Position numbers and translations under genes: made by a program. 64,000 nt of DNA, from contig VGJQ01000001.1 in assembly GCA_016867375.1 (NCBI GenBank), forward strand, positions 21,394 through 85,393. Direction: 5' to 3'. The notes beneath the pieces were generated by a model, which ran no database searches, was not told where the DNA came from, and saw nothing but the letters and a program-made list of their open reading frames with translations. This stretch comes from Candidatus Kaiserbacteria bacterium (GTDB lineage Bacteria > Patescibacteriota > Minisyncoccia > Phycocordibacterales > UBA2100). Shown here one piece after another: positions 9,464-48,048 of the stretch; within the stretch, counting starts at the first letter, position 1; each line of letters begins with the position of its first letter.

Positions 9464-9607
9464 TGCGGCAGTGGTGTGGGCGTGAGTGTTTCAACTGTTC
9501 GAGCACAGCACATACTATTTATTCCTCGGACCCGAAGTCCAGAAAACTCTGTTCGATACAAAAACGCGGGCGAGTTTTGAAACACTCACGCCCACACCAC
9601 TGCCGCA
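9464..9607 (+). repeat. Long-stem hairpin element, family 1, copy B (perfect 31-bp closing stem, about 82-nt loop)
   Basis: The arms tgcggcagtggtgtgggcgtgagtgtttcaa and its exact reverse complement pair. The stem sequence is completely different from copy A, but the loop core is conserved. It sits immediately 5' of the comEC start. Confidence 0.75.
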
Positions 9608-9635
9608 TATCACACTCGTCAGGGATGCTGCTCGG

Positions 9636-11153
9636 ATGTATAATCCCCGCCACATGGGGTCAACCATACTCTGGTCTACGGTAATCGGATTTCTCTCTGG
9701 CGTATTTGCGCGGTCTTTTATCCCACTCGGGTACGCTACGATGGGCACGCTTGTCCTCACGTCTTGGGCGCTTCTTGCATACGTCGCTCTCGGTAAAAGA
9801 TACGCGCGCATATGCATCTCATTGGCCGCTTTTTGTTTTCTGTGTGCGGCAGGGATATGGCGCATGGACATGGCGATCATCCCCGTCGACACGACCCTTC
9901 AGGCGCACACTGGTCAACGTGTCACTTTGTCGGGATACGTATTTGCCGAGCCCGACGCGCGCGAAGGCAGCACACGCGTATCCCTCAAGGTCCGCACACT
10001 GAGCATCGCGAGCACCACACTACCCGCACATGCCGGCATACTCGCCGTCCTGCCACCCCATACGCACGTCTCATACGGGGATATCGTCACGGTCTCGGGC
10101 ATCGTACGCATGCCCGAAGCATTTGATACCGGCATCGACCGGACATTCGACTATCCTGGATACCTCGCCACCAACGGTATTTCATACCTGGTATCTTCCG
10201 CACATCTCGAATCCATCGATGGCAACGAGGGCAACATCGCGCAGGCCTCCGTACTGCGCATAAAAAAGATATATCTCGACGGCCTCCATCAGACCTTGAG
10301 CGAGCCACAGGCGGGCCTCGCCGCAGGTATCACCGTCGGCGACAAACGATCCATCGGACCGGAGCGCTCGGAAGAATTCGTACGCGCCGGACTCGTCCAT
10401 ATGCTTGTCCTGTCCGGTTACAACATCACGATCATCCTCAACGCGGCAGCGTACTTCGTATCCTCCTTGCCGCGCGTCCTCCAATTGGGCACGAGCGGCA
10501 TCGTCGTCATGTTTTTTATCCTCCTTTCAGGCGGGGCATCGAGTGCGATACGCGCCGGACTCATGGCGCTCGTCGCTGCATTCGCCCGCCAGCACGGACG
10601 CATCTACCTGCCACTGCGCGCTATCGGGATCGTCGCAGCCGGTATGGTGCTCTGGAATCCATATATCCTTGCATTTGACCCAGGATTCCAGTTATCGGCA
10701 CTTGCCACCATTGGTCTCGTCGCCTTTACGCCGCCTATCGCCTCACACCTCCCTTGGATCACCGCCCGCCTTGGACTGCGCGAGATTGTTGCATCAACCC
10801 TCGCGACCCAAATCACCGTACTACCATTGCTCCTCTACCAAAACGGGCAACTTGCCGCCCTCTCACTTCCGGCAAACATTTTGGCACTCATTCCCGTACC
10901 TTTTGCGATGGCGGCATCGTTTGGCGCAGCGGTACTTGGAGCATTGTTTGGATCGACTGCGGCTATACTGGCATTTCCTGCATATGCACTCCTTTCGTAT
11001 ATACTCAGCATCGCTCATTTTTTCGCCTCGCTTCCGTTTGCGTCGGTATCTATCCGCGCATTCAGCGCCTGGTGGCTCACCATCGTATATATGGGACTCT
11101 TCATGTGGTGGCGATATTATGTCTCTGATGATAAAAACGAAAAAGCGGCCTGA
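9636..11153 (+). CDS. comEC: ComEC/Rec2-family DNA-uptake channel protein (N-terminal DUF4131 plus competence domain; no fused MBL domain)
   Basis: Polytopic. The conserved competence-domain region (HMLVLSGYNITII...GGASSAIRAGLMALVA) is present. The start was set at the first ATG downstream of hairpin element B. The ORF track starts at 9486, inside the hairpin. Confidence 0.8.
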   Translation: MYNPRHMGSTILWSTVIGFLSGVFARSFIPLGYATMGTLVLTSWALLAYVALGKRYARICISLAAFCFLCAAGIWRMDMAIIPVDTTLQAHTGQRVTLSGYVFAEPDAREGSTRVSLKVRTLSIASTTLPAHAGILAVLPPHTHVSYGDIVTVSGIVRMPEAFDTGIDRTFDYPGYLATNGISYLVSSAHLESIDGNEGNIAQASVLRIKKIYLDGLHQTLSEPQAGLAAGITVGDKRSIGPERSEEFVRAGLVHMLVLSGYNITIILNAAAYFVSSLPRVLQLGTSGIVVMFFILLSGGASSAIRAGLMALVAAFARQHGRIYLPLRAIGIVAAGMVLWNPYILAFDPGFQLSALATIGLVAFTPPIASHLPWITARLGLREIVASTLATQITVLPLLLYQNGQLAALSLPANILALIPVPFAMAASFGAAVLGALFGSTAAILAFPAYALLSYILSIAHFFASLPFASVSIRAFSAWWLTIVYMGLFMWWRYYVSDDKNEKAA

Positions 11154-13840: not shown

Positions 13841-16800
13841 GTGAACGCCGAATCCCGATACTTACACGGTCTCAACGAACGACAAAAAGAGGCGGTACTC
13901 CACACCGAGGGGCCGCTTCTCATCATTGCAGGAGCGGGGGCGGGCAAGACTAAGACCATCACACACCGCATCGCACACATGATCGAGCAGGGGGTACCAG
14001 CGCGACAAATCCTCGCCGTGACGTTTACCAATAAGGCGGCGGGGGAGATGCGTGAACGCGTCAAGAAATTGATCCCTGAGGGAAGGGGCGTCCCTTTGGT
14101 CGCGACATTTCATAGCCTGGGTGTGCGGCTTTTGCGCGAATTCCATGAGGAAGCGGGGCTTGAGCGCGGTTTTAGTATCTGGGATCGCGACGATAGTATG
14201 CGCGTCATCAAGCGTGCGCTCGAAAAGCTCAATATCGAGACGATCCCCGGCCGCAATGTACTGTCGGCGATTTCCCGCGCAAAAGGGGATGGCATCTCGC
14301 GCGAGGAGTACGATCGCGACGCCAATTCATTCCACGAGCGCACGGTCGCCCAAGTATGGCAGATCTACGACAAGGCGCTTCACGAAGAGGGTGCCTTGGA
14401 TTTCGACGACCTCCTGGGTCGTACACTTATGCTTCTACAGAACTCGCCGCGCGTGCTTGAACTTTTGAGGGGTCGCTGGCACTACATCACGATCGACGAA
14501 TATCAAGACACCAACGCCGCGCAATACGAGATTGCACGCTTGCTTTCTGGCGAGCGCCGCAATCTCTGCGTCGTCGGCGATATCGACCAGTGTGTTGCGG
14601 AAGGAACACTCATTACTATGGCAGATGGAGAAAAAAAACCTATCGAACGTGTCAAAAAGGGTGATTTAGTGCTATCAAACTATGGCAGCGGCGCCATGCG
14701 CCCATCACACGTCCATCGGATACACAGGCGATCAACAAGGGAAACAGTGACTATCACCACAAAATCCGGCCGTAGACTGACGACCACATCGGATCATGTA
14801 CATTTTGCCGGATATCGGCTCGGTATCGTGCCACAGATGTATTTCACGTACCTTATGTATAAGCACGGCGTCGGGTACCGACTTGGAGTATCACAAGTCT
14901 ATGCCAACGGCCAACGAACTCCAATGGTCGGATTCCAACAACGCTGCAACCATGAACACGGGGATGCTGTATGGATCATTGGAACTCATACCGCCTCGAA
15001 CGATGCGCGCGTCATGGAGTACACACTCTCTCTCCAATACCAAATACCGACACTACCATTCGTGGCGCGCAAAGGAGTGAGTGTCGGCGGATATGTACAC
15101 GACCAAAGGGTTATAGATGCACTATTCGCCACAATCGATACAGAAAAGGGAGCCTTTCGGCTACTTCGAGACCGTGGCCTGTCGCGCGATTACCCCCACC
15201 ACCGAGCACAGTCTCGAGACAGTAATCGGCGTAATGTAACGATCACGCTCTGTGGCGATCAGCGCGGTAAAACCCCTATGCATCGTATATCAATGACCGG
15301 AAATGACGACGAAGGGAAACATCTTTTGCAATCTATCGGACTTTCCGTGCGTTCTGTAAAGAATGGATCATCGAGCTGGCGTTTCGAGAGTGCACACGCC
15401 GACTACGCAGCCTTGCGTGAACGTGTCATGCACATCTCTACTGTGTTTCCCAGACTTGCCATAATTGAGAATGCACGACTTGGTGGCAATAAGGCAAATC
15501 CAAAAGATGGAAATTCGCTCGGTTTCCTACCAGCCGCATCGGTGCTTCCTGGCATGGCCCTGTTCGACGAGGTGGGAGGATACGACATTATAACTGGTGT
15601 AGAAAAAGCTACTCAAACCAGGCGCGTTTACGACATCGACATCGAACACACACACAATTTCATCGCAAATGGCATTATCACGCACAATTCGATATATACT
15701 TGGCGCGGGGCCGACATCGAACACTTGATGAACTTCGAGACTCAGTTCCCGGGTACCAAAGTCATCCTCCTCGAACAAAATTACCGTTCTACGCGCACCA
15801 TCCTCACCGCTGCCAATGCGGTGATTGCTAAAAACAAACGCCGCAAAGAGAAAAATCTTTTTACCGACAACGACACAGGCGAACCGATCCATACATACGC
15901 CGCGCGCAATGAAATGGACGAATCGTGGTTTGTCGCACAGACAGCGGTCGAGATGATACAGGGGGGCATCAGGCCCGACGAAATCGCAATCCTTTACCGG
16001 GAGAACTTCCAGTCGCGTGCACTCGAAGAGGCACTCCTCGCATTCTCAGTGCCCTATCGCGTGCTCGGCACCAAATTCTTCGAACGCAAAGAAGTGAAAG
16101 ACACGCTCTCATATCTGCGCGCTGCGCTCAATCCGAAAAGCAAAGTCGATCTCGTGCGCGTGGCCGCTGTACCACCGCGCGGTATCGGCAAAGTGACGCT
16201 CGATAAAATGCTTGCCCCGTTAGAAAAACCAGATACTAACGGCTTCACGTCAATATGGGACCAGTTTTTTCTAACGGGGCGAGTGGGGGATGAGTCTTCC
16301 ATCACAGGAGCAACACTCATCAAGGTGACAAAATTCCGTGAACAGATCGCGGCTATACGCAAAGCAATCGAAACGTTACCCGCATCTGAAGCGGTGCGAT
16401 ACACCGTCGAAGTGTCCGGTATGGAAAAGATGTATCAGGAAGACAAGAAAGAGGGGATAGAGCGTCTCGAAAACATCCACGAGCTCGTCAATCTCGCCGT
16501 GCGCTACGATGAGGAGCTCCCCCCAGTTGGTATCGAAAAGCTCCTCGAAGAAGCCGCCCTCCAGTCCGACCAGGATGAGCTTGAGGAGCCCCAGGCAGCA
16601 GTCTCCCTTATGACCATTCATGCGTCCAAAGGTCTCGAATTCGACGCGGTGTTTGTGACCGGCCTCGAGCAAGGCCTCTTTCCGTCACTACGCGAAGATA
16701 CGCGCGACCCCGAAGAAGAGCGCCGACTCTTCTACGTCGCTGTCACACGCGCGCGCAAGCGGCTCTTCCTCAGTCATGCCGGCGAACGCATGAAATACGG

Positions 16801-16918
16801 CTCGCGCGAGCGCGCCCTGCGATCAGAATTCATCCACGACATCGACCAGCGCCTCATCGTCCACTCCTCACGCGACGGTGGCGTAGAAGGGCAATCGGGA
16901 GAGGGAATTATTTGGTAA
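13841..16918 (+). CDS. uvrD: UvrD/PcrA-family ATP-dependent DNA helicase interrupted by an intein
   Basis: Motif I AGAGAGKTKTITHRIAH. Helicase motif VVGDIDQ / SIYTWRGA is split by a 366-aa insertion. The C-terminal motifs (TIHASKGLEFDAVFV, RLFYVAVTRARKRL) are intact. The extein alone is about 659 aa. Confidence 0.9.
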   Translation: MNAESRYLHGLNERQKEAVLHTEGPLLIIAGAGAGKTKTITHRIAHMIEQGVPARQILAVTFTNKAAGEMRERVKKLIPEGRGVPLVATFHSLGVRLLREFHEEAGLERGFSIWDRDDSMRVIKRALEKLNIETIPGRNVLSAISRAKGDGISREEYDRDANSFHERTVAQVWQIYDKALHEEGALDFDDLLGRTLMLLQNSPRVLELLRGRWHYITIDEYQDTNAAQYEIARLLSGERRNLCVVGDIDQCVAEGTLITMADGEKKPIERVKKGDLVLSNYGSGAMRPSHVHRIHRRSTRETVTITTKSGRRLTTTSDHVHFAGYRLGIVPQMYFTYLMYKHGVGYRLGVSQVYANGQRTPMVGFQQRCNHEHGDAVWIIGTHTASNDARVMEYTLSLQYQIPTLPFVARKGVSVGGYVHDQRVIDALFATIDTEKGAFRLLRDRGLSRDYPHHRAQSRDSNRRNVTITLCGDQRGKTPMHRISMTGNDDEGKHLLQSIGLSVRSVKNGSSSWRFESAHADYAALRERVMHISTVFPRLAIIENARLGGNKANPKDGNSLGFLPAASVLPGMALFDEVGGYDIITGVEKATQTRRVYDIDIEHTHNFIANGIITHNSIYTWRGADIEHLMNFETQFPGTKVILLEQNYRSTRTILTAANAVIAKNKRRKEKNLFTDNDTGEPIHTYAARNEMDESWFVAQTAVEMIQGGIRPDEIAILYRENFQSRALEEALLAFSVPYRVLGTKFFERKEVKDTLSYLRAALNPKSKVDLVRVAAVPPRGIGKVTLDKMLAPLEKPDTNGFTSIWDQFFLTGRVGDESSITGATLIKVTKFREQIAAIRKAIETLPASEAVRYTVEVSGMEKMYQEDKKEGIERLENIHELVNLAVRYDEELPPVGIEKLLEEAALQSDQDELEEPQAAVSLMTIHASKGLEFDAVFVTGLEQGLFPSLREDTRDPEEERRLFYVAVTRARKRLFLSHAGERMKYGSRERALRSEFIHDIDQRLIVHSSRDGGVEGQSGEGIIW
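14591..15688 (+). mobile_element. Intein (366 aa) in the UvrD helicase motif (VGDxDQ|S)
   Basis: Begins CVAEGTLITMADG (block A, Cys1). TTTSDHVHF (block B, TxxH). Ends IANGIITHN followed by Ser+1. The host motif is restored to VGDIDQSIYTWRGA on in-silico excision. No clear LAGLIDADG motif is seen in the central region. Confidence 0.8.
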
Positions 16919-22728: not shown

Positions 22729-25362
22729 ATGAGTCGCTTTCACATACCACAGGTTCTCACACACAGCGTCTTGTATGTATTTTTTGCCTGCGCGATACTC
22801 TTCCTTCCCCTCCAGGTGTCATTACCCGCGCCAACCACACAAACCACTTCAATCGGTTACTCCGTGACGCTGAGTGCCGCACACGCCCAGACAGGCCCGT
22901 CCGCATCGACCAAAACGAAAGATCTCCCCACCTCATGCGGCGGCTGGGGATGGCTCCAAGTAGGAGTGGTCACCTGCGCCACACGATGGACCATATCCGT
23001 CCTCGCCACGCTCGTGATCCAGGCCGGTGTCCTTATCCTCGGCCTCGCAAGCGGACTATTTGGCCTCTTGATTGATCGCACTATCATCGGCTTTGGCGCC
23101 GCTGATGGTATTCTCACCAAAGGGGTGCAGGATGGCATCACTATCGCGTGGACCGCTTTGCGCAATATCTCCAACATCCTCATCATCGGCTTTTTCACCT
23201 TTATCGCCATCAACATCATTCTCGGCAGCGCCGAATTCGGTCAAAAGAAGCTCGTCGCCCGCGTCCTCATCGTCGCGATCCTCATCAATTTCAGCCTCTT
23301 CTTTACGAAAGTCATTATTGATTTTTCCAACTACACTGCCACACAGTTCTATCGCCAGGCGACCATACTGCAGACGAGACCAAACACCGGCGGCACCCCT
23401 GAAGGTATCGGCGACCAGTTTATGAATGCCCTCGGCGTGACCTCGTTTGCCCAGACCCAAGGGGAGATCTCCAAGCTCGGGGAGACACAAAATGGCATCG
23501 CATCCATGCTACTCATCTCGATCATGTCGTTTGTCATTCTGCTTGCCACAGCTATGGTGCTTTTCTACGGGTCATTCATCCTCGCTTCTCGCGCGATCCT
23601 CCTCGTCTTTCTCATGATTACCGCTGCTCTTGCGTTTACCACCTGGCTCATCCCGACATTTGCAAGTAAAGGATGGGACACGTGGAGAAAGGCGCTTATC
23701 GAAAGTGCGGTGCTCGCACCCATGCTCATGCTCTTCCTGTGGGCGACGCTCGCAATCGCACGCGCCCTCAAAGCGGCCAACAACGGCGGCACACTCGGCG
23801 GGGTGCTGGTAAATCCTGCCAACGCAGGTGATCTTGGTGCCTTGTTCTCATATCTCGTCATTCTCGGGTTGTTGTTTGCGACCTTTAAGGTGACGTATAG
23901 CTTCTCGCGAGACATCAGCGGATTCAATTGGGCCTCCGTCGCACCCGCAATCGGCGTCGCCGGCTTCGCGCGCGCTGGGGCATTTGCCGGTAAAAATATG
24001 AGTGCAATCGCCAGCCGCGGACTCAACGCCGCCGCGAATCGCATCACCTCGAACTCAAAAATGGCGACCCTCGGCAAGGGCGCCTTGTATGGCGCATCGG
24101 CACGTGCCGCTACCCTCAGTCTGCGCAGCCAAAACCTCATGAATACGGGTGTCGGTGCGCTCGTCGCGAGCCAAGTAAAGAAAACCGGCCTGACACAGCC
24201 AGTCTTGGCCGGAGCAAATCGCCCGCCCATCTTCAATGCAGCCCAACAAAGCGCCACAAATTCAATCCTGCAGGCTATTGCCGCAAAGAAGCCTCCCGCA
24301 CCACCAAGCATCACCCCGCCGCCAGTACAGAAGGCGCTGCCAAAGCCGCCGACTACTCCTCCCACACCCACAAAACCTCCGACAGCACCGGTTGGCGCCG
24401 CCTTACCAAAACCTCCTACAGCTCCGTCTACTGGAGCAGTGCAGCCTACCCAAGCTAAACCCGCAGCAGCTGGCCCGCAAGCGCTACCAAAACCGGCGGC
24501 GGCGAGTGCTCCCGGCACCACTCCACCTACGGGCGTACAGCGCGGCGGTGCCACTGATGCAGTGGGCAGCCAGATCGCAGAGGCACTGAAGGAAGGGGAG
24601 AAGAATAAGGCCGAGAGTAATAAGGCGGCAGCGGCAGCGAGTGACCAGAAGCAAAAACAGCTCACCGAAGAAATCGGCAGGGCGGTTGCGGGCGCTACAG
24701 CCGAAAGTGCACGAGAAACAGCGGAGGCAGTGAGAGCGGCAGGTACGGAGACACAAGCGGCTGTTGGAAAAATCGCAGAACAAGCAAGTACATCCCAAAA
24801 GGAAGTCGGGCAGAAACTAGCAGAAGAATTCAAAGGTGCTGCTGCTGACGTGAAAGGTGCCGCAGCCTCCGACGCCGCGACATTTACCAAGGGCCTGGAG
24901 ACCTTCCAAAAGACACGAAAAGAGGAGCTCGACCAAGCAACGGCTTCGGGAGCATGGGAGCGCGCCGCTTCTTCCCGCAAAGCGGAGGCGCGCGCTGTAG
25001 CTGAAAATATCCGTTCGGCCGCCCAACAAACGACGATACAAGCCTCGGCACGTTTTGCCCCCACACCCTCACATCCGCTCACTATTCCATCGGGGGGTAC
25101 TGCTGACACACAAGCGGCACAATCCCTATCCATGCGGCCCCAAAATATGCCCGGGAGTGCAACCGCGCATGTCGGCCAACCATCCATGAATATAAACAAT
25201 CTCTCATACGCGGACATCATCCGCGCGGGTACGCGCAGGGGCGGCGACAAACCCGGCACCGTCCCCGTCATTCGTCTGAGCGAACAACTCAAAGCCAAAC
25301 ACATGCCGCAGCCGTCCAATCCTGCCAATGACAACAGGCCGCCACATTCTCTCACCGCATAA
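22729..25362 (+). CDS. VirB6/TrbL-like polytopic membrane protein with a Pro-rich linker and a long Ala-rich helical C-terminal extension
   Basis: About 500 aa with many transmembrane helices. Then a PPAPPSITPPPVQKALPKPPTTPPTPTKPPTAP linker and an AxxxA-rich coiled C-terminus. Its position upstream of VirB3-like and VirB4 genes matches Gram-positive-type T4SS organisation. Confidence 0.5.
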   Translation: MSRFHIPQVLTHSVLYVFFACAILFLPLQVSLPAPTTQTTSIGYSVTLSAAHAQTGPSASTKTKDLPTSCGGWGWLQVGVVTCATRWTISVLATLVIQAGVLILGLASGLFGLLIDRTIIGFGAADGILTKGVQDGITIAWTALRNISNILIIGFFTFIAINIILGSAEFGQKKLVARVLIVAILINFSLFFTKVIIDFSNYTATQFYRQATILQTRPNTGGTPEGIGDQFMNALGVTSFAQTQGEISKLGETQNGIASMLLISIMSFVILLATAMVLFYGSFILASRAILLVFLMITAALAFTTWLIPTFASKGWDTWRKALIESAVLAPMLMLFLWATLAIARALKAANNGGTLGGVLVNPANAGDLGALFSYLVILGLLFATFKVTYSFSRDISGFNWASVAPAIGVAGFARAGAFAGKNMSAIASRGLNAAANRITSNSKMATLGKGALYGASARAATLSLRSQNLMNTGVGALVASQVKKTGLTQPVLAGANRPPIFNAAQQSATNSILQAIAAKKPPAPPSITPPPVQKALPKPPTTPPTPTKPPTAPVGAALPKPPTAPSTGAVQPTQAKPAAAGPQALPKPAAASAPGTTPPTGVQRGGATDAVGSQIAEALKEGEKNKAESNKAAAAASDQKQKQLTEEIGRAVAGATAESARETAEAVRAAGTETQAAVGKIAEQASTSQKEVGQKLAEEFKGAAADVKGAAASDAATFTKGLETFQKTRKEELDQATASGAWERAASSRKAEARAVAENIRSAAQQTTIQASARFAPTPSHPLTIPSGGTADTQAAQSLSMRPQNMPGSATAHVGQPSMNINNLSYADIIRAGTRRGGDKPGTVPVIRLSEQLKAKHMPQPSNPANDNRPPHSLTA

Positions 25363-26026: not shown

Positions 26027-26530
26027 ATGCAATTCCAGGTTCCCCAATTCATCGAGGTCGAGGACAAGATCTTTGGTCCGTTCACGTTCAGACAGTTCAT
26101 CTATCTCGTGGGTGGTGCTGGTGCGTGCTACCTTGTATGGCGCGTCCTGCCGGTATTTGTATCGTTGCCACTGATCATCTTTATCGCGCCGTTTTCCGTG
26201 GCGCTTGCCTTCTTTCAAATGAACGGCCGTCCGTTTATTCTCGCGCTCGAAAGCGGCTTCTTTTATCTCATACACTCAAAGTTGTACCTATGGAACAACA
26301 CGAAAAAACCGCTTGTCGCACGCGAAAAGACAAAAACAGCCGCAGCGACCAAGAACGGTCTCTACATACCTCGGCTTTCCGACAGCAAACTTCACGAGCT
26401 CGCCTGGAGCCTTGATATTAGAGAGCGCATCGCGAGCGGCACGACAGTGGAGGCCGAGCGGCAGCCAGCTCCCGTCGACGTACTCGCCCCCGTCCGCACT
26501 GCCCGCGACGCCATGACTAAAGCATCATAA
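26027..26530 (+). CDS. VirB3/PrgI-like small membrane protein (two TM helices)
   Basis: 167 aa. Two adjacent hydrophobic helices near the N-terminus (FRQFIYLVGGAGACYLVWRVLPVFVSLPLIIFIAPFSVALAFF). Sits immediately before the VirB4 gene, as VirB3/PrgI genes do. Confidence 0.45.
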   Translation: MQFQVPQFIEVEDKIFGPFTFRQFIYLVGGAGACYLVWRVLPVFVSLPLIIFIAPFSVALAFFQMNGRPFILALESGFFYLIHSKLYLWNNTKKPLVAREKTKTAAATKNGLYIPRLSDSKLHELAWSLDIRERIASGTTVEAERQPAPVDVLAPVRTARDAMTKAS

Positions 26531-26534
26531 ATCT

Positions 26535-27191
26535 ATGGAAGAAACCAACGCGCGCACATCCACCCGTTCGACACAAGACTTCGTCCCTATTTCGGAAGTC
26601 CGCGACGGCATTGTCGTTTTGAAAAACGGGGAATTGCGCGCAATACTCCTTGCATCATCCATCAACTTTGCCCTGAAATCCGAAGACGAGCAGACGGCAT
26701 TCATTATCCAATTCCAAAACTTCCTCAACTCACTCGATTTTTCCTGCCAGATCTTCGTACAATCGCGTATGCTCGACATCCGCCCCTACATCACCACCCT
26801 CGAAGCGCAGTACAAACAACAGCTCGACGACCTCATGCGCATACAAATCCGCGAATACATCGAATTCATCAAGAGCTTCACCGAAGCCGCCAACATTATG
26901 ACCAAAAATTTCTTCGTCGTCGTGCCGTACACACCGACAATCATCAAGAAAGCTACCGGCCCTACCTCGTACCTCCCCTCATTCGGCGGCAAAAAAGACA
27001 GCGGCACAGTCGAGACGTCGTTTGAAGAGCACGTCTCCCAGCTCGAGCAGCGCATCTCGATCGTCCAACAGGGCCTGGTACGCACCGGAGTACGCACCGT
27101 CCAGCTCGGCACCGAGGAAGCTATCGAACTTCTCTACAAGATGTTCAATCCCGGCGAAGAAGGAAAACCTATGCCCGTACCTACCGACTGA
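26535..27191 (+). CDS. Hypothetical cytoplasmic protein immediately upstream of virB4
   Basis: 218 aa with no transmembrane helix. 4-nt gap from the VirB3-like gene. Function unknown. Confidence 0.45.
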   Translation: MEETNARTSTRSTQDFVPISEVRDGIVVLKNGELRAILLASSINFALKSEDEQTAFIIQFQNFLNSLDFSCQIFVQSRMLDIRPYITTLEAQYKQQLDDLMRIQIREYIEFIKSFTEAANIMTKNFFVVVPYTPTIIKKATGPTSYLPSFGGKKDSGTVETSFEEHVSQLEQRISIVQQGLVRTGVRTVQLGTEEAIELLYKMFNPGEEGKPMPVPTD

Positions 27192-27258: not shown

Positions 27259-30200
27259 ATGGCACTCCTAGACCTCCTACACCTCGGCGACAAGAACAAG
27301 AAAGATACGGAGGGCCCGGGGATAATCCCGGTATTGCCCGCGGAGATCTACCAGACGGGCGTGCTCGACCTGCAAGACGTCATCGCACCGCATGCACTGC
27401 AGATCAATTCGCGCGAGCTCGATCTCGGCGAGAAGATCGCGCGTACCTTTTTTGTGATCTCATATCCGCGCTTCCTTACGACAGGGTGGTTTGCGCCGAT
27501 CATCAACATGGACAAGGTGATCGACATTTCCATCTTCGTCCACCCGATGGATACCAATGAGATGCTACGCAAATTCCAAAAAAAGGTCGCCGAGGTGCAG
27601 AGCCAGATATCCACACGCGAAGAGAAGGGAATGGTGCGCGATCCGATGCTCGACACCGCTTACCAAGACCTCGAACAGCTGCGCGACAGCCTCCAGCAAG
27701 CGCAGGAGCGCATTTTCGATGTCGGCCTGTACCTGACGATCTACGGCAACACACGCGAGGAGATCGACAAGGCCGAGGCAGCGGTACGCTCGATCCTCGA
27801 AAGCCGCCTCGTCTACATCCGCCCCGCACTCTTCCAACAAGAACAGGGGTTCCGATCTGTCTTGCCCTTATGCACTGATTTACTTGATGTACACACCAAG
27901 CTCAATTCGGCCCCGCTCTCGTCGATCTTTCCCTTCATCTCGTTTGACCTCACGTCAGACCGCGGCATCCTCTATGGCATCAACCGCCACAATTCATCAC
28001 TGATCCTCTTCGACCGCTTTAGTTTGGAGAACTATAACTCGGTCACTTTTGCAAAGTCGGGCGCAGGCAAAAGTCTTCGCGGCAACGAGTCGGTACTCAT
28101 ACGCCGCAATGGTGTAATACATAGAGAAAGAATCGGTTCGGTCGTTGAGCGACTTATCAAAAAGCATGGCGCCACAAAAATCGATGAAGAGCTCGAGGGT
28201 GTCATTGACCCTGGTTTTGAAGTATTCAGTTTCGACAAGAATATGCGGGCAGGGTGGAGTATGGTTTCTGTCGCCGCACGCAAAGAGGCCCCGGATATCT
28301 ACTATACATTCAAAACAAAAAGTGGCCGGGAAGTAACCACAACCGCCGATCATAATATGCTCGTGTTGCGCGACTGCAAGGTGATCGCCGCAAAAAGTGA
28401 AGATGTACGCGAAGGGGAGTATATCCCTTTACCGCGACAGGTGCATGCGACAAGCGGCGGCTCACATCACGAGCTAACGAAAGATTTTGCTTCACTATTA
28501 GGTTGGATATCGGCCGAGGGAGCATTCACTGATCGCTCAATCGTCATCAGCAATACAGAACAAGAAGCCTTGGATCAGATTGCGACACTCTGTGCCAATC
28601 TACACTTGAATCATACGCGAAACGCGCGATGGATTGCCGTGTATGGTAAAGCATTGCGCGTATACTTGCACTCGATCGAGGCGGATGGTTTGTCGGGAAG
28701 AAAACGCGTTCCTGCGCCCGTCTTTGGCGCGTCGCGCGAAATAGTTGCCGCGTATTTGCGTGCGTATTTCGAAGGCGATGGAGGGGTCGAAGATCACGAA
28801 GTAACCGTTCTTTCAAAATCAAAAGAGCTCATTTCCGGCATATCATATCTTTTGTATTACTTTGGTATCATCTCACGCATCCAAAAACGACACAAACGAT
28901 ACGCGGCGACAGGCGGTTACCGCACGTTCTGGCAATTACAGATTTCAGGTCAGGATAATATCAGAAAATTCCAGGAGTATGTCGGTTTTGTTTCGACGCG
29001 CAAACAGTCGGCGCTCGCCCCTATTGCCGCGAAAGCGGGTAATACCAACGTTGACATTGTTCCTGGGTTGCAACCGCTCGCGCAAGAACTCGCGTCGCTT
29101 TTCGACTCGCAGCTCTCCGACATCGCCGACTTTTCCGCGCTCAAACAGGGGCGCAACCTCTCTCCACAACACCTTGGAAGGTTCGTATCGACGATGGAGG
29201 AACGTGTCCAACGCTTCAAAGACCTCTATCCATTTATGCAAAAGCTGCAAGACTTGCCTACTGTAGGCGCGATCATCAAAAAAGCCGACGAAGATCGGGA
29301 ACTGAATCGCGGACTTATCGAGGCTATGAGCAGTTCATGGTTCACCATCAAACAAGGAATGGCCCCGCGCGCCAAAAACGCATTAAAAATATTCGAGACG
29401 GCGGGAATGGATGCACCAAAGACAGTGGATGAATTAAAAACGATGCTCAACGAAGGTATCGCGAATCTCCGCGTGCCGGCGAACGGTTTTGACGGCGGTT
29501 ATCTGGCGCGGACATTAGGCGGTATGCGAGACAATGCATCATATGATTTGCTGCACGCCGCCGCCCAATTCATCGCGGGAGAGTACCACCGCATATTGCA
29601 AAACCTGAATCGCGTTGAGGAAATCATCACCACACTCAAAACGCTCGCCGAGGCGGACCTTTTTTGGGATCCGATTGTATCCATCACTAAGAAAGAGAAT
29701 ATAGGAGACAAATACGTGTATGATCTTACTGTTGATGACGAAGTGTTCCTGGCCGGGCACGGCGGCATGTTCGTGCACAATTCGTATACGACCAAACTGG
29801 AGATATTGCGCTCCCTCATGTTCGACACCGAAGTGATCGTGATCGACCCGGAGCGCGAATATGAATACCTCGCAGAGACGGTCGGCGGGCGCTACTTCAA
29901 CATCTCACTCTCCTCCGAACATCACATCAATCCCTTCGACCTGCCGATACCGCGCGAAGATGAAAATCCATCAGACGTGCTGCGCAACAACACCATCGCA
30001 CTCGTCGGACTCTTCCGCATCATGCTCGGCGGACTCACTCCCGAGGAAGATGCAATCATCGATAAAGCCATCACCGAGACATACGCGCTCAAAGACATCA
30101 GCGCTGATGCCAATTTCGCCGCCGTCGAACCGCCGCTTCTCTCAGACTTCGAGCTCGTACTCTCGGGCATGGAAGGATCAGAATCGCTCGTACAGCGACT

Positions 30201-30930
30201 CGCCAAATACACCAAGGGCACCTGGTCGGGCTTCATGAATCGCCCCACCAACGTCGATATGAATAAGAAACTCGTCGTCTTCTCGGTGCGCGACATGGAA
30301 GACGATCTCAAGCCCGCCGCCATGTACATCATCACACACCACATCTGGAACACCGTGCGTAAAGAGCTGCGCAAGCGCCTCCTCGTCATCGACGAGGCAT
30401 GGTGGATGATGCGCTCTGAAGATACTGCATCATTTCTCTTCTCGATCGCAAAGCGCGGACGCAAATACTACCTCGGCATCTCGACCATCACCCAAGACGT
30501 CTCCGACTTCCTCAACTCTCCGTACGGCATTCCCATGATCACCAACTCATCGATTCAGCTCCTCCTGCGCCAATCTCCGACATCGGTCGATCTCGTCCAG
30601 AGCACCTTCAAACTCTCCGATGAGGAAAAATATCTCTTGCTCGAATCCGACGTGGGGGAGGGGATTTTCTTCGCCGGACTCAAGCACGTCGCACTCAAAG
30701 TGATTGCATCGTACACCGAAGACCAGATCATCACCTCTGACCCATCACAAATCCTCGCCATCAAGAAAGCGAAGCAAAATCTCGCCGCAGCAGGTGAGGG
30801 CGGCCCCGCCGCTGAAGCAGCTATCGCCGAAGTGTCCGCCCAAACGATGGTAGAACATGCTGCGCCCGGTGCCGACACCGCGGGCGTGGGTGCAAGCTCT
30901 CTCAACAGCAATGCGCTTAAGAGCGTATGA
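27259..30930 (+). CDS. virB4: VirB4-family type IV secretion ATPase (Gram-positive TraE/PrgJ-like) interrupted by an intein in the Walker A P-loop
   Basis: The N-terminal region (RTFFVISYPRFLTTGWFAPII...ISIFVHP) matches VirB4/TraE proteins. Walker A FAKSGAGK|...|SYTT is split by a 570-aa insertion. Walker B LLVIDEAWWM and C-terminal motifs are intact. The extein is about 653 aa. Confidence 0.85.
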   Translation: MALLDLLHLGDKNKKDTEGPGIIPVLPAEIYQTGVLDLQDVIAPHALQINSRELDLGEKIARTFFVISYPRFLTTGWFAPIINMDKVIDISIFVHPMDTNEMLRKFQKKVAEVQSQISTREEKGMVRDPMLDTAYQDLEQLRDSLQQAQERIFDVGLYLTIYGNTREEIDKAEAAVRSILESRLVYIRPALFQQEQGFRSVLPLCTDLLDVHTKLNSAPLSSIFPFISFDLTSDRGILYGINRHNSSLILFDRFSLENYNSVTFAKSGAGKSLRGNESVLIRRNGVIHRERIGSVVERLIKKHGATKIDEELEGVIDPGFEVFSFDKNMRAGWSMVSVAARKEAPDIYYTFKTKSGREVTTTADHNMLVLRDCKVIAAKSEDVREGEYIPLPRQVHATSGGSHHELTKDFASLLGWISAEGAFTDRSIVISNTEQEALDQIATLCANLHLNHTRNARWIAVYGKALRVYLHSIEADGLSGRKRVPAPVFGASREIVAAYLRAYFEGDGGVEDHEVTVLSKSKELISGISYLLYYFGIISRIQKRHKRYAATGGYRTFWQLQISGQDNIRKFQEYVGFVSTRKQSALAPIAAKAGNTNVDIVPGLQPLAQELASLFDSQLSDIADFSALKQGRNLSPQHLGRFVSTMEERVQRFKDLYPFMQKLQDLPTVGAIIKKADEDRELNRGLIEAMSSSWFTIKQGMAPRAKNALKIFETAGMDAPKTVDELKTMLNEGIANLRVPANGFDGGYLARTLGGMRDNASYDLLHAAAQFIAGEYHRILQNLNRVEEIITTLKTLAEADLFWDPIVSITKKENIGDKYVYDLTVDDEVFLAGHGGMFVHNSYTTKLEILRSLMFDTEVIVIDPEREYEYLAETVGGRYFNISLSSEHHINPFDLPIPREDENPSDVLRNNTIALVGLFRIMLGGLTPEEDAIIDKAITETYALKDISADANFAAVEPPLLSDFELVLSGMEGSESLVQRLAKYTKGTWSGFMNRPTNVDMNKKLVVFSVRDMEDDLKPAAMYIITHHIWNTVRKELRKRLLVIDEAWWMMRSEDTASFLFSIAKRGRKYYLGISTITQDVSDFLNSPYGIPMITNSSIQLLLRQSPTSVDLVQSTFKLSDEEKYLLLESDVGEGIFFAGLKHVALKVIASYTEDQIITSDPSQILAIKKAKQNLAAAGEGGPAAEAAIAEVSAQTMVEHAAPGADTAGVGASSLNSNALKSV
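28072..29781 (+). mobile_element. Intein (570 aa) with a LAGLIDADG homing-endonuclease domain, inserted in the VirB4 P-loop
   Basis: Starts SLRGNESVLIRRNG (Ser1). TTTADHNMLV (block B). LAGLIDADG-like motifs LLGWISAEGAF and LRAYFEGDGGV. Ends GMFVHN followed by Ser+1. Removal restores GAGKSYTT. Confidence 0.8.
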
Positions 30931-32350: not shown

Positions 32351-33619
32351 ATGAAAACATTGAGACTCGTACTACTCTACATGCTTGCCGCACTCCTCGT
32401 TATTATTTTAGGAGGTGTTACCGGCTGGTATTTCTTTTTACACATTCCTCAAGAAAAAAGTGCTGCTATAGACGCCGCGCGCGGACTGGGGCCCTCGCCG
32501 CTCTCCTTTACAGGAGGAAGCACACAAAAAAATGTAAGCATGGTCGTGAGCGGCGAATCTGGGACAAGCACCACTCCAACGCCCGACACAGCTTCGTCGA
32601 CACCCTCACACCTCTGGCAGGTCGACAAAACGCCCGTGGCAGGCATGCGCTTCGTGAAGCAGGGGACCACGACGACACTTCATTTTGTAGAGCGCGCCAA
32701 CGGATTCTTGTTTACCGCTGACTATGCGCAGCGATCGACTGTCCGCATCACTGAAACACTCATGCCGAAAATGTATGAGGCATTTATGAGTGCCGACGGG
32801 GGGGTTATACAACGATCACTTGATGAGAGTGGCTCCATCACCACCTTCGTGTCGACCGTGGGTGCGACCACCTCGAAGACAAGCACCTCGACCGAAAAGA
32901 ATTCACTCAACGGCTCATATATCGCAAAAAATATTCACATACTCGCTGTTCATCCGTCCGCACGCTCGTTCTTCTATTTTATCTCCAATGACTCCGGCGG
33001 GGTCGACGGCATGACCGCTTCTTGGAGCGGGACAAAACCGAAAAAGATATTCAGCTCGACCATGAGGCATTGGATTCCACTCTGGCTCGCTGACAACCGT
33101 CTCGTCATTACAGAAGGTGCGTCTGACGACCTTCCAGGCCATAGTTATAGTGTCGCAAGCGACGGATCTCTCGTACTCCTTCTCGGTAATGTGCCAGGGC
33201 TCACCATCCTCCCACACCCTTCCTCAAAAGCGCTAATCTACGGATCGTCGATGGGCGGCAAGCTGACACTCTTCACGCAGGGGGTAGCGAGTACGACGCC
33301 AACCGCGCTTGAAATAGAGACTATCGCGGACAAATGTGTATGGCTTGAGAGTAAGAGTCTGATCGCATACTGTGCAGTGCCCTCCACCCCACCATCCGGA
33401 AAATTTCTCGACTCGTGGTACCGCGGAGCAGTGCACACTGTCGATAACTGGTGGAAGATCGATGTGGCCGCGAACGCAGCGATGCAGATCTACTCACCAA
33501 AAGAATCTGACGGTGTAAAAATCGACGTCGAGCGCCCCATGATCGACCCGACCGGAAATTATCTCGCCTTTATCAATGCATCCGACAAGTCGTTGTGGAT
33601 GTTAAAAATACCTCAATAA
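32351..33619 (+). CDS. Hypothetical N-terminally anchored extracellular protein (422 aa)
   Basis: N-terminal transmembrane helix then a Ser/Thr-rich linker. No recognised domain. Confidence 0.5.
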   Translation: MKTLRLVLLYMLAALLVIILGGVTGWYFFLHIPQEKSAAIDAARGLGPSPLSFTGGSTQKNVSMVVSGESGTSTTPTPDTASSTPSHLWQVDKTPVAGMRFVKQGTTTTLHFVERANGFLFTADYAQRSTVRITETLMPKMYEAFMSADGGVIQRSLDESGSITTFVSTVGATTSKTSTSTEKNSLNGSYIAKNIHILAVHPSARSFFYFISNDSGGVDGMTASWSGTKPKKIFSSTMRHWIPLWLADNRLVITEGASDDLPGHSYSVASDGSLVLLLGNVPGLTILPHPSSKALIYGSSMGGKLTLFTQGVASTTPTALEIETIADKCVWLESKSLIAYCAVPSTPPSGKFLDSWYRGAVHTVDNWWKIDVAANAAMQIYSPKESDGVKIDVERPMIDPTGNYLAFINASDKSLWMLKIPQ

Positions 33620-34050
33620 TAAGTATGCGCATACGTACTATCGCCACCCCACTTGTCGTCTGTTTGTGCATGATCGCAGTGTTTTATGTGGCCACGACCA
33701 TGGCGGCACATGCACAAGGCCAGCCTGGTCAACAAACATTCGTGTCGTTATCAAAAATTGAACAACAATCTCAAAAAACAAGCGGAATGTTTGCGGACAG
33801 AGATCTTCCCACCTTCATCAACCGTATTTTCTTCTTCCTCATCACGCTCGGCGCTATGCTCGCAGTGGGACGACTCGCATACGCCGGATGGCTGTACATG
33901 CTCGGCGACAATTACGGCAACCTCAGCAAGGCAAAGACTATCATCGGCAATGTGGTAATCGGCCTCTTACTCCTCCTCTCAATCTGGCTGATCCTCAACC
34001 TGATAAATCCGCAGATTCTCAATCTGGATGTGCTCCAGTCGATCAAGTGA
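33595..34050 (+). CDS. Candidate VirB2/TrbC-like pilin (signal peptide plus two hydrophobic helices); probable start at 33625
   Basis: Signal peptide ending AAHAQ. The mature part of about 110 aa has two long hydrophobic helices separated by a short polar turn, the generic T4SS pilin architecture. Assigned by architecture only. Confidence 0.35.
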   Translation: MDVKNTSIISMRIRTIATPLVVCLCMIAVFYVATTMAAHAQGQPGQQTFVSLSKIEQQSQKTSGMFADRDLPTFINRIFFFLITLGAMLAVGRLAYAGWLYMLGDNYGNLSKAKTIIGNVVIGLLLLLSIWLILNLINPQILNLDVLQSIK

Positions 34051-36887: not shown

Positions 36888-38243
36888 ATGATGGCAAACC
36901 GAGAATTGTGGCAAAATGCACTCGTACAGATCGAGCTCGGCACGTCGGAGACCAGTTTTCGGACGTGGTTTCGCAATACGGATATCGCCAGTCGGGAAGG
37001 GGGAGTGGTACACGTCGCCGTACCATCAAAGATCGTAAAAGAGTGGCTCACCGACAAGCACAACAAGCTCATCCTCAAAACACTCCGTAGTTTAGATCCT
37101 TCGGTACGGACGGTAGAATACACGATTCACAAATCTATCGCCTCTCCTGTGAATGACCGTAAAACACCTCGCCAACCTTCCCCTGAAAATGCATCGCTCG
37201 ACCTCAGCAGCCTCTACATCGATAAGCGGGACAATTTGAACCCTCGCTATACCTTTGAAACCTTTGTGGTGGGACCATTCAATCAGCTCGCGCACGCGGC
37301 TGCAAAAGCAGTGCTTGAGCGCCCCGGACTCACCTATAATCCACTTTTTATCTATGGATCGACCGGACACGGAAAAACCCACCTTATTCAGGCAGTGGGG
37401 AATTACTTCAAGAAAACCCACGCCAATAAAAAGGTTTTGTATGTGACTTCCGAACGATTCGCCATCGACTACATAAACGCCGTGCGCTCCGGCCACGCCA
37501 ACACCTTCAAAGACCAGTATCGCCAATATGACGTCCTCATCATGGACGACATCCAATTCATCGCAAACACGGAAAAGACCCAAGAGGAGCTTTTTCACCT
37601 CTTCAACGCGCTTCGAGACAACAATAAACAGATCGTGTTTTCATCTGACAAACATCCATCACTCCTGAGCGGTCTCGAGGAGCGCCTCAAGAGCCGTTTT
37701 GCAGGGGGTATGATCGCCGAGATCCCTGAGCCGGACGTCGAGTCACGCACAGCGATCATCCGTGCCAAGATCGAACAGCACGGATTCTCGATCCCTGAGG
37801 ATATCATCAGCTACATCGCCGAAAACGTCCGCGGCAACATCCGCGAACTTGAAGGTGTCTTGAATATGATCGTCTGCCGATCGCAGTTGAAAGGCAAAAC
37901 CATCTCTCACGCCGACGTAAAAGCGCTTATTAAACACAATATGAAACCCTCGAAAGGCGTTTCGGTGGATGAGGTGGTGCGCCGCATCGCCCACTACTAT
38001 GACATCACCGAGAAAAACATCTATGAAAAGACGCGTAAAAAGGAGGTGGTGCGGCCGCGCCAAGTCATTATGTACATCCTTCGCGAGGAATTCAACATCT
38101 CATACCCTTCAATAGGGGAAAAGCTTGGAGGGCGAGATCACACCACCGTCATACACTCGTGTGAAAAAATCAAAGAGGAGGTGAAGGCAAACCCATCACT
38201 CGAAGCTGAGATCGAGCATATCCGCTCGCTTATCCAGGTATAA
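36888..38243 (+). CDS. dnaA: Chromosomal replication initiator protein DnaA
   Basis: AAA+ motifs (GSTGHGKTHL, IMDDIQF) and the C-terminal DNA-binding domain (RPRQVIMYI...). Confidence 0.95.
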   Translation: MMANRELWQNALVQIELGTSETSFRTWFRNTDIASREGGVVHVAVPSKIVKEWLTDKHNKLILKTLRSLDPSVRTVEYTIHKSIASPVNDRKTPRQPSPENASLDLSSLYIDKRDNLNPRYTFETFVVGPFNQLAHAAAKAVLERPGLTYNPLFIYGSTGHGKTHLIQAVGNYFKKTHANKKVLYVTSERFAIDYINAVRSGHANTFKDQYRQYDVLIMDDIQFIANTEKTQEELFHLFNALRDNNKQIVFSSDKHPSLLSGLEERLKSRFAGGMIAEIPEPDVESRTAIIRAKIEQHGFSIPEDIISYIAENVRGNIRELEGVLNMIVCRSQLKGKTISHADVKALIKHNMKPSKGVSVDEVVRRIAHYYDITEKNIYEKTRKKEVVRPRQVIMYILREEFNISYPSIGEKLGGRDHTTVIHSCEKIKEEVKANPSLEAEIEHIRSLIQV

Positions 38244-38479
38244 CCTGTGTATATGAATGGGTATAATAATATGAATAACAAGAGGAGTCTTTATAGGAAA
38301 TTCTGTGGGTATCTTCACTTTTTTTTCGACACGATCCTTTATCCCCGTAGGTATACATACACAGACACACTGTTTTCAACAGCGATCGATTGCTGTTACA
38401 GCTTTTCTTTCTGCCATATTTTGCCTTTTCCCCATTATCCACACCACTAGTAGTAATAGTAGTTTTTAATATAAAAGAT
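38244..38479. other. AT-rich dnaA-dnaN intergenic region with a DnaA box (candidate DNA-unwinding element / second oriC module)
   Basis: Strongly AT-rich relative to surroundings. TTATCCACA at 38435-38443 and degenerate TTTATCCCC nearby. Confidence 0.5.
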
Positions 38480-39583
38480 ATGAAGATCAGCGTAAGAAAA
38501 GATTCGATACTTCAAGCAGTTCTCATCTCAGAACGCATCACGGGAAAGAAGGAGTCGCTCCCTGTCCTTTCGTGCATCTTGATAGATACCCAAGATGAAG
38601 TAGTGGTCCGGGCAACCAACCTTGAGGCGGGCGTCGAGGTCCAGGTACCTGCCGATATCGAGGAGAAGGGGAGGGTGGCGGTGGTTGCGGGAATACTCGC
38701 ACAGACTATTCGTTCGATCAGTGGTGAGACGATAACACTCAAAACGAGTGATGACGGAAACCTCATTATCGAGGCAAAGGGTACCAAGACGATCATGAAA
38801 GCGATACCCCATGAGGAATTCCCGGTGCTGTCGCGTGAAAATGCAGATATTAAAGGCGTTGTGGTGGCGCGTGAGCGCTTTTTGCGCGGCATTCAGGCGG
38901 TCATTTATGCGACATCTCCTTCTATGATCCGTCCCGAGCTTGGGAGCGTGTATATTTCCATCAAACAGGGCGCCATTGTGTGCGCGGCGACCGATTCTTT
39001 CCGCTTGTCCGAAAAGACGATTCCAGGCGGATCAGTGGAAGATGTGGGGGATATTCTTGTGCCATTGAAACATGCACTCGAAATGGTTCATATTTTGGAG
39101 AAGATATCATCTGAGACTATTGCTATCAGACTCGAAGAGACAGATCTCGATATTCGTTCCGGCTCGGTGCGGTTTGTCTCGAGGATCGTCGATGCGACCT
39201 TCCCAAACTACAAAGAGATAATCCCAAAGAAATTTGCGACCGAGGCGACCCTGCTTAAGGGTGATTTTATGGAGATGCTTAGAAAGGCGCGGATTTTTTC
39301 TGGCAACGACCAGTATGTGGGGCTGCACGTCTATCCGTCACGAAAGATATTTTCTGCAACGGCACGCAGTAATGATGTGGGGGAGATGTCCGATACGATC
39401 GATGCGGCGATTTCCGGCGAGGATATCGATATCAATTTTCACATCGGCTATCTCGCCGACTGTCTCTCTTCGATAGAGTCCGACAGTATTACAATCGGAT
39501 TCGGCGGCATCGGGCGCCCAATGGTGATCCGTGGCGTCTCTGATGCGACATTTACCTACCTGGTAATGCCACTTAATCGCTAG
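38480..39583 (+). CDS. dnaN: DNA polymerase III beta sliding clamp
   Basis: N-terminus MKISVRKDSILQAVLISERITGKKESLPVLSCILI. Three-domain length (367 aa). Directly follows dnaA. Confidence 0.9.
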   Translation: MKISVRKDSILQAVLISERITGKKESLPVLSCILIDTQDEVVVRATNLEAGVEVQVPADIEEKGRVAVVAGILAQTIRSISGETITLKTSDDGNLIIEAKGTKTIMKAIPHEEFPVLSRENADIKGVVVARERFLRGIQAVIYATSPSMIRPELGSVYISIKQGAIVCAATDSFRLSEKTIPGGSVEDVGDILVPLKHALEMVHILEKISSETIAIRLEETDLDIRSGSVRFVSRIVDATFPNYKEIIPKKFATEATLLKGDFMEMLRKARIFSGNDQYVGLHVYPSRKIFSATARSNDVGEMSDTIDAAISGEDIDINFHIGYLADCLSSIESDSITIGFGGIGRPMVIRGVSDATFTYLVMPLNR

Positions 39584-48024: not shown

Positions 48025-48048
48025 GCGGCCCCATTTGGGCCGCTTTTT
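48025..48048. terminator. Bidirectional terminator (gcggccc-cattt-gggccgc plus T5)
   Basis: GC stem plus T-run. The pilB-2 stop (48047) overlaps it. Confidence 0.6.

Follow-up and report, generated by a model that had tools for sequence, protein, structure and literature searches.

A LAGLIDADG Intein at the Walker A Motif of a VirB4-like Type IV Secretion ATPase from Patescibacteria

Inteins are already documented in the ATPases of type IV secretion systems (T4SS). The survey of Novikova et al. 2016 (PMC4760082, Table 3) lists 5 inteins in VirB4 (COG3451), from Firmicutes and Proteobacteria, and 21 in archaeal VirB11. The P-loop is a common intein site, and many ATPases carry inteins there (PMC4760082). 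The inteins of DnaB (site b), MCM (site a), and the RFC small subunit (site a), for example, are also located inside the Walker A motif, which implies that ATP binding should require splicing, but their hosts are non-orthologous to VirB4.

With regard to architecture, PI-PkoII (PI-TkoII), the Pol-2 intein of Thermococcus kodakarensis (2cw7), combines two Hint halves with a LAGLIDADG endonuclease and is cited among the cis-inteins having Ser1 and either Ser or Thr at +1 (PMC10189870). In Ser1/Ser(Thr)+1 inteins the so-called NX motif, Arg/Lys-His, is conserved and was critical in the three inteins in which it was tested, the exceptions being Tyr and Asn, two among 58 inteins (Pasch et al. 2023, PMC10189870). 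As for the host system, a 2025 phylum-wide study of the T4SS of Patescibacteria describes a chromosomal cluster adjoining dnaA and refers to evidence that epibiotic growth of one lineage requires the system (PMC12102498). Inteins are not mentioned in that study, and a full-text literature search returned nothing on a VirB4 intein from Patescibacteria or the candidate phyla radiation.

The window considered here, a stretch of 64,000 nucleotides of Candidatus Kaiserbacteria DNA, contains the same T4SS cluster (Table 1). The gene of the VirB4-like ATPase is one unbroken frame of 1223 codons, and its product has the same sequence as MBM3260832.1 at NCBI, which is labelled a "hypothetical protein" of a Candidatus Kaiserbacteria bacterium. 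The counterparts of the preceding 218-aa gene in syntenic loci match the Pfam TraC-like family (PF26593). The position of DnaA implies that the cluster adjoins the replication origin region, and this synteny agrees with the arrangement described for Paceibacteria in PMC12102498.

Table 1. Features of the VirB4 locus, in window coordinates (residue numbers in the intein count from Ser1).
Feature	Position	Strand	Description
PrgI (VirB3-like) gene	26027..26530	+	T4SS partner upstream of VirB4
218-aa gene	26535..27191	+	T4SS partner upstream of VirB4
Precursor gene	27259..30930	+	VirB4-like (CD1110/TraC-type) T4SS ATPase plus intein, 1223 aa
N-extein	27259..28071	+	aa 1-271, ends in first Walker A half FAKSGAGK
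Intein	28072..29781	+	570 aa, class 1 type, Ser1 to His569-Asn570
N-terminal Hint (splicing) subdomain	28072..28446	+	intein aa 1-125: block A Ser1, R70-K71, block B
Block B	28336..28362	+	TTTADHNML, intein aa 89-97, T91xxH94
LAGLIDADG homing-endonuclease domain	28471..29046	+	intein aa 134-325
LAGLIDADG motif 1	28495..28527	+	LLGWISAEGAF, intein aa 142-152, acidic residue E149
LAGLIDADG motif 2	28756..28788	+	LRAYFEGDGGV, intein aa 229-239, acidic residue D236
All-helical module	29071..29649	+	about 190 aa, intein aa 334-526, between endonuclease and C-terminal Hint strands
C-terminal Hint strands	29650..29781	+	intein aa 527-570: block F (YVYDLTV, D551), block G (GMFVHN)
C-extein	29782..30930	+	begins with Ser+1 (SYTTKLEILRSL...), stop codon included
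T4SS pilin gene	33595..34050	+	same cluster as VirB4
DnaA	36888..38243		3' of T4SS pilin gene

Translation of the frame confirms the 570-aa insert of the original prediction, with all the motifs listed there in their places. The insert begins with SLRGNESVLIRRNG and ends with GMFVHN, followed by SYTT of the host protein. When the insert is searched alone, it scores 68.1 bits against Pfam Intein_splicing (PF14890, cutoff 35.8 bits), 40.8 bits against TIGR01445 intein_Nterm (cutoff 24.5), and 77.1 bits against LAGLIDADG_3 (PF14528, cutoff 22.5), far above what chance would give, and the profile check proposed with the original prediction thus comes out in its favour. The remaining NCBIfam matches are intein-containing archaeal and bacterial proteins (RpoA'', DnaB, RFC, IF-2, RNR, and GyrA), the RFC and DnaB profiles matching in generic intein parts only. 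The top sequence match in the PDB is PI-PkoII (2cw7, E 1e-19), followed by the TFIIB, CDC21, VMA, and DnaB inteins. The PI-PkoII alignment comes in three pieces, one for the endonuclease and one for each of the two Hint portions (N-terminal half and C-terminal strands) that flank it.

An AlphaFold2 model of the intein, built with 41 homologs, has a mean pLDDT of 91.2 and a pTM of 0.84. The Hint halves are predicted as beta strands at aa 1-121 and 530-569. The top Foldseek match of the model in the PDB is the TliVMA intein (7qss, E 2e-21), with PI-PkoII, PI-PfuI, and PI-SceI also found; the lower-ranking matches are mini-inteins and free LAGLIDADG enzymes, I-DmoI among them. TliVMA, PhoVMA (7qst), and PI-PfuI (1dq3), with E values from 2e-21 to 4e-13, follow the same plan, in which a LAGLIDADG endonuclease is nested within a Hint domain, but they have 361-454 residues, do not contain the helical module, and are 11-16% identical to the VirB4 intein. 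For PI-PkoII the identity is about 14-25%, and its extra domain precedes the endonuclease, whereas the 190-aa helical module of the VirB4 intein follows it.

A database search with the precursor retrieves an insert at the same site (GxGK/S, the slash marking the insertion point) in at least 117 homolog clusters, defined at the 90% identity level. All of these belong to Patescibacteria, including Taylor-, Zambryski-, Nealson-, and Gribaldobacteria, Paceibacterota, and others. Conservation was assessed over 118 sequences, i.e., that of the window and 117 database homologs. Residue 1 is Ser in 113 of the 118 members and Thr in the other 5, while T91 and H94 of block B, D551 of block F, and H569 and N570 of block G are each found in 118/118. 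The +1 residue is Ser in the window and in 117/117 of the homologs. The insert thus displays the features of a class 1 intein: a nucleophile at position 1, TxxH, the block F Asp, His-Asn, a nucleophile at +1, matching profiles and fold, and intein-free orthologs. On these grounds, we consider it highly probable, at roughly 0.9, that the insert belongs to the canonical class 1 inteins, that it has a LAGLIDADG homing endonuclease nested in it, and that it is placed between the Walker A Lys and Ser.

The host protein and the junction are in line with this assignment. The flanks of the insert read ...NSVTFAKSGAGK / SLRGNES...GMFVHN / SYTTKLEILRSL..., and its in silico removal yields FAKSGAGKSYTT, restoring GAGKS. 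The C-extein completes the Walker A motif and carries Walker B (LLVIDEAW) and the remaining ATPase domain. Against the VirB4-like family NF045971 (conjugal transfer ATPase, CD1110; curated cutoff 325 bits), the precursor reaches 340.8 bits, split over two stretches, and the in silico spliced protein of 653 aa reaches 364.4 bits in a single one. The spliced extein also aligns with 4AG5, a structure of the VirB4 ATPase domain (E 2e-40), without a gap in the P-loop (AKSGAGKSYT versus AKPGAGKSFT). The expectation that excision would restore a canonical GAGKSYTT is thereby upheld, as is the earlier claim that the VirB4 Walker A is interrupted by a LAGLIDADG intein, the split falling between Lys and Ser.

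The junction can be compared directly with an intein-free allele (P0119), which is located on a contig (L001) syntenic with the window locus, with the gene order PrgI, TraC-like, VirB4, two unknown genes, T4SS pilin, R3H protein, YidC, RnpA, DnaA, and DnaN. Around the insertion site, 30 of 30 residues are identical between this allele and the window, and the corresponding 90 nucleotides differ at 19 positions, every one of them synonymous. The P-loop junction is therefore clean, as had been anticipated. The unspliced precursor is very unlikely to be active, because the 570-aa domain parts the Walker A Lys from the remaining ATPase core, and a requirement of splicing for ATPase activity is a reasonable inference from the sequence.

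The VirB4 intein deviates from PI-PkoII and from the Mja TFIIB intein in the NX motif. In alignments with these two, the NX His corresponds to K71, and R70-K71 is invariant in 118/118 members, while both PI-PkoII and the Mja TFIIB intein have Arg-His there. The VirB4 intein thus does not carry the Arg/Lys-His typical of the cysteine-independent Ser1/Ser+1 subgroup. Since an invariant Lys replaces the His, catalysis may differ or be slow. The invariant Arg-Lys at a position where Ser1 inteins usually have Arg/Lys-His is a detail that may be new. In all 5 Thr1 members, position 69, beside R70-K71, is occupied by Met instead of Ala. These five look like one clade, and the Met may reflect common descent.

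The endonuclease domain retains its catalytic acids, with E149 kept in 115/118 members and D236 in 116/118; it also has a conserved K249-S250 pair, K249 being present in 117/118. In the model, aa 137-320 form a duplicated alpha-beta-beta-alpha-beta-beta-alpha unit, and the Foldseek matches I-DmoI and I-Tsp061I have target TM-scores of 0.6-0.67. Two helices each bearing a catalytic acid, together with a core fold that occurs twice, correspond to the two-motif monomeric LAGLIDADG type. The domain may cut the intein-free allele site-specifically, a proposal that the patchy presence of the intein among close relatives supports indirectly.

The module between the endonuclease and the C-terminal Hint strands is conserved across the intein family and, when modelled alone, is predicted to adopt a confident fold (pLDDT 93.4). 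Searches of the module against Pfam at E <= 10 and against NCBIfam gave noise only, no intein-containing RFC or DnaB profile matching it by itself. The best match among PDB sequences has an E value of 1.2, and Foldseek against viral structures gave nothing below E 0.5. A module with no sequence or fold relative detectable in these searches is a second detail that may be new; the third is the intein as such in the T4SS of Patescibacteria, which the 2025 survey passes over in silence. Our guess is that it could serve the endonuclease as an accessory DNA-binding module.

The length of the insert varies in the family from 467 to 679 aa, with the mode near 665 aa. The 570-aa form of the window is devoid of about 95 aa that are common to most members and lie between the N-terminal Hint half and the endonuclease. 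A same-site intein occurs in more distant VirB4 clusters as well, in one case (P0155) with Cys as its first residue, and it is present in the Woesebacteria MAG GW2011_GWB1_39_10. A single-sequence intein search of genome contigs found two loci. When proteins were searched with the intein only, the matches were for the most part fragmentary members of the VirB4 family, the nearest non-VirB4 host being an archaeal RNA polymerase A'' at 25% identity. Neither 72,556 plasmids nor 50,697 phage records yielded a close relative of the intein; the similarity to known conjugative plasmids and phages is remote and of the generic intein/endonuclease kind (20-32% identity), and a link to them was dropped.

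A search started from an intein-free allele returns no intein among its best 120 clusters, which have 631-732 aa and 83-97% identity and come in many cases from Kaiserbacteria. Intein-minus alleles, which the original prediction had suggested looking for in related genomes, are thus found among close relatives. The window extein is 94.9% identical to intein-free alleles such as P0355 and P0332 over 606 well-aligned extein columns and is nearer to these than to any intein-bearing allele. In another case, the extein of an intein-bearing allele (P0002) is 99% identical to that of an intein-free one (P0368), with 89-90% identity at the nucleotide level. In a neighbour-joining tree calculated without support values, the 11 closest intein-bearing alleles are scattered among the 120 intein-free ones. 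Such patchiness is the outcome expected of homing, and it is consistent with a mobile element undergoing gain and loss.

The divergence of the inteins adds a second aspect to this history. Among the closest intein-bearing relatives, the inteins are 64-72% identical and the exteins 85-89%, and the intein and extein identities to the window correlate with r = 0.69. No pair of near-identical inteins in diverged exteins was seen among the alleles compared. With the inteins diverging more than the exteins, there is no direct sign of very recent intein transfer, and the correlation, together with the faster divergence of the intein, gives a history that looks mostly vertical, with occasional gain or loss. 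For each of the four subdomains of the intein, the comparison with four relatives for which DNA is available gives a pN of 0.09-0.27 and a pS of about 0.8. Since saturation of synonymous sites affects even the nearest relatives, pN/pS serves only as a bound, with pN much below pS. The low pN indicates that all parts of the intein, including the endonuclease and the helical module, are under purifying selection.

Based on these results, standard class 1 splicing by way of oxyester intermediates is the mechanism with the best support. The 1223-aa precursor would be translated with a split P-loop, and Ser1 would carry out an N-O acyl shift at Lys271-Ser272, aided by Thr91 and His94 of block B. 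The resulting ester would be attacked by Ser+1 (residue 842) in a transesterification, after which cyclization of Asn570, aided by His569 and Asp551 of block F, would free the intein. An O-N shift would then make the Lys-Ser bond, restoring GAGKSYTT and the active ATPase. The freed intein could use E149 and D236 to cut intein-free virB4 alleles across the P-loop codons, and recombinational repair would copy the intein into the cut allele, i.e., homing would take place.

We have also considered that the intein splices but that its endonuclease is inactive, in which case the element would persist vertically and the patchiness would result from repeated precise losses. The correlation of r = 0.69 and the faster divergence of inteins relative to exteins are what mostly vertical descent would give, and the failure to see near-identical inteins in diverged exteins points in the same direction. 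However, both catalytic acids and K249-S250 are kept in 115-118 of the 118 members, the endonuclease domain has a pN of 0.26 against a pS of about 0.8, and precise loss is rare without an intein-free donor allele. We therefore regard an inactive endonuclease as rather unlikely. Far less weight is given to the segment being a fixed, non-splicing accessory domain of a VirB4 subfamily or an assembly artefact, since syntenic loci hold intein-free alleles whose junction is identical, every splicing residue is invariant across the 118 members, and over 100 independent assemblies, drawn from several sources, share this architecture; this we consider practically excluded. A conserved subfamily domain, the outcome that would have spoken against the original prediction, is in fact ruled out, as the best 120 relatives of an intein-free allele are all without the segment.

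Another scenario is co-option of the intein as a conditional switch, in which splicing would await a cue and gate the T4SS ATPase, the sensor being the helical module or the Arg-Lys pair. It is attractive in that the P-loop site lies in a protein of a system that a related lineage requires for epibiotic growth (PMC12102498), that a conserved 190-aa module of unassigned role is present inside the intein, and that P-loop inteins have been argued by Novikova et al. to be possibly regulatory (PMC4760082). Most close relatives are intein-free, though, which means that the system does not need the intein, and neither a catalytic cysteine nor any other known sensor feature is present, making such a switch very improbable. 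We are equally sceptical of a broader version, according to which the P-loop intein of Patescibacteria VirB4 would be a distinct lineage whose Arg-Lys and helical module might confer a new mode of Ser1 activation and maybe conditional splicing that gates the ATPase, on which these epibiotic bacteria depend.

Compared with the VirB4 inteins in Table 3 of Novikova et al., the intein described here is alike in the T4SS ATPase host family and in the kind of element, but its hosts are Patescibacteria, which are absent from that list of Firmicutes and Proteobacteria. The original prediction set the T4SS ATPase apart from the replication and repair ATPases in which inteins are well documented, a novelty that is not sustained given the five already listed. 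The VirB4 P-loop intein is real but a fairly ordinary mobile element, which leaves the known workings of inteins unchanged, and its value lies mainly in annotation, in the NX Lys, and in the helical module. MBM3260832.1 is to be read as a VirB4 precursor with an intein rather than as a "hypothetical protein", and homologs labelled merely "LAGLIDADG family homing endonuclease" are the signature ATPase of the T4SS; several homologs carry this automatic label or "intein/homing endonuclease". It would be preferable to take the intein out of VirB4 before full-length sequences enter T4SS surveys and phylogenies of Patescibacteria. The family moreover offers more than 100 natural Ser1/Ser+1 inteins, a few of them Thr1, that have no catalytic cysteines and carry Lys in place of the NX histidine, and it could help to test nucleophile activation in oxyester inteins.

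The G+C content of the insert (50.2%) is mildly below that of the exteins (55.3%) and of the whole window (52.8%), an offset that weighs little as evidence. The patchy distribution of the intein indicates homologous DNA exchange among Kaiserbacteria-like lineages. The uptake of foreign DNA is plausible, because ComEC and a PilB-type ATPase are both encoded within the window.

An Arg-Lys pair (R70-K71 of the window's intein, counted from its Ser1) occupies the NX-motif position in 118 of 118 members of the VirB4 intein family, that is, in the window's intein and its 117 same-site homologs from Patescibacteria (clusters at the 90% identity level). Other Ser1/Ser+1 inteins normally carry Arg/Lys-His at the same position, a motif called critical by Pasch et al. 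2023 (PMC10189870).

The first intein residue is Thr rather than Ser (GxGK/T...) in five of the 117 homologs (P0052, P0053, P0070, P0076, and P0092, all outside the window). Thr at intein position 1 is probably rare. In each of these five members, Met replaces Ala as the residue preceding the invariant Arg-Lys pair.

The same 64-kb window also contains a second intein, within a UvrD/PcrA-like helicase gene. The insert splits the helicase at VVGDIDQ / SIYTWRGA, starts with CVAEGT, and ends with ITHN followed by Ser. Its start gives weak Pfam matches to Hint and Hom_end_hint. No LAGLIDADG motif was found by Pfam in its middle part. The positions of the features are collected below.

Coordinates of features in the window, except for the last row, which refers to a related intein-bearing locus
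Feature	Position	Strand	Pfam match
ComEC	9486..11153
UvrD/PcrA-like helicase ORF, 1025 aa, intein-interrupted	13841..16918	+
Second intein, 366-aa insert	14591..15688	+	Intein_splicing, 46.8 bits, C-terminal block
877-aa protein, upstream in T4SS cluster	22729..25362	+
596-aa ORF, opposite strand to 877-aa gene	23565..25355	-
218-aa gene, directly 5' of virB4	26535..27191	+
Intein R70-K71	28279..28284
dnaA-dnaN	36888..39583
PilB-type T2SSE ATPase	48047..49747
Small gene among T4SS genes	L007/L008 4374..4742		23S_rRNA_IVP / bAvd

Numerous membrane helices are predicted for the 877-aa protein, which also carries a long tail rich in Pro, Ala, and Thr and gave no Pfam match; its location in the cluster points to a VirB6-like channel component. 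The 596-aa ORF is probably a by-product of biased composition. The window's 218-aa gene likewise has no Pfam match. At syntenic loci the corresponding genes contain PF26593 (TraC-like), so this lineage may encode the N-terminal portion of a typical VirB4/TraC in a gene of its own. The small 23S_rRNA_IVP / bAvd gene of L007/L008 is without a counterpart in the window's T4SS cluster.

This cluster adjoins the replication origin region, an arrangement described for Paceibacteria (PMC12102498). Donor DNA for intein homing could come from genome-encoded DNA-uptake machinery. ComEC, the PilB-type ATPase, and dnaA-dnaN all lie within the same 64 kb.
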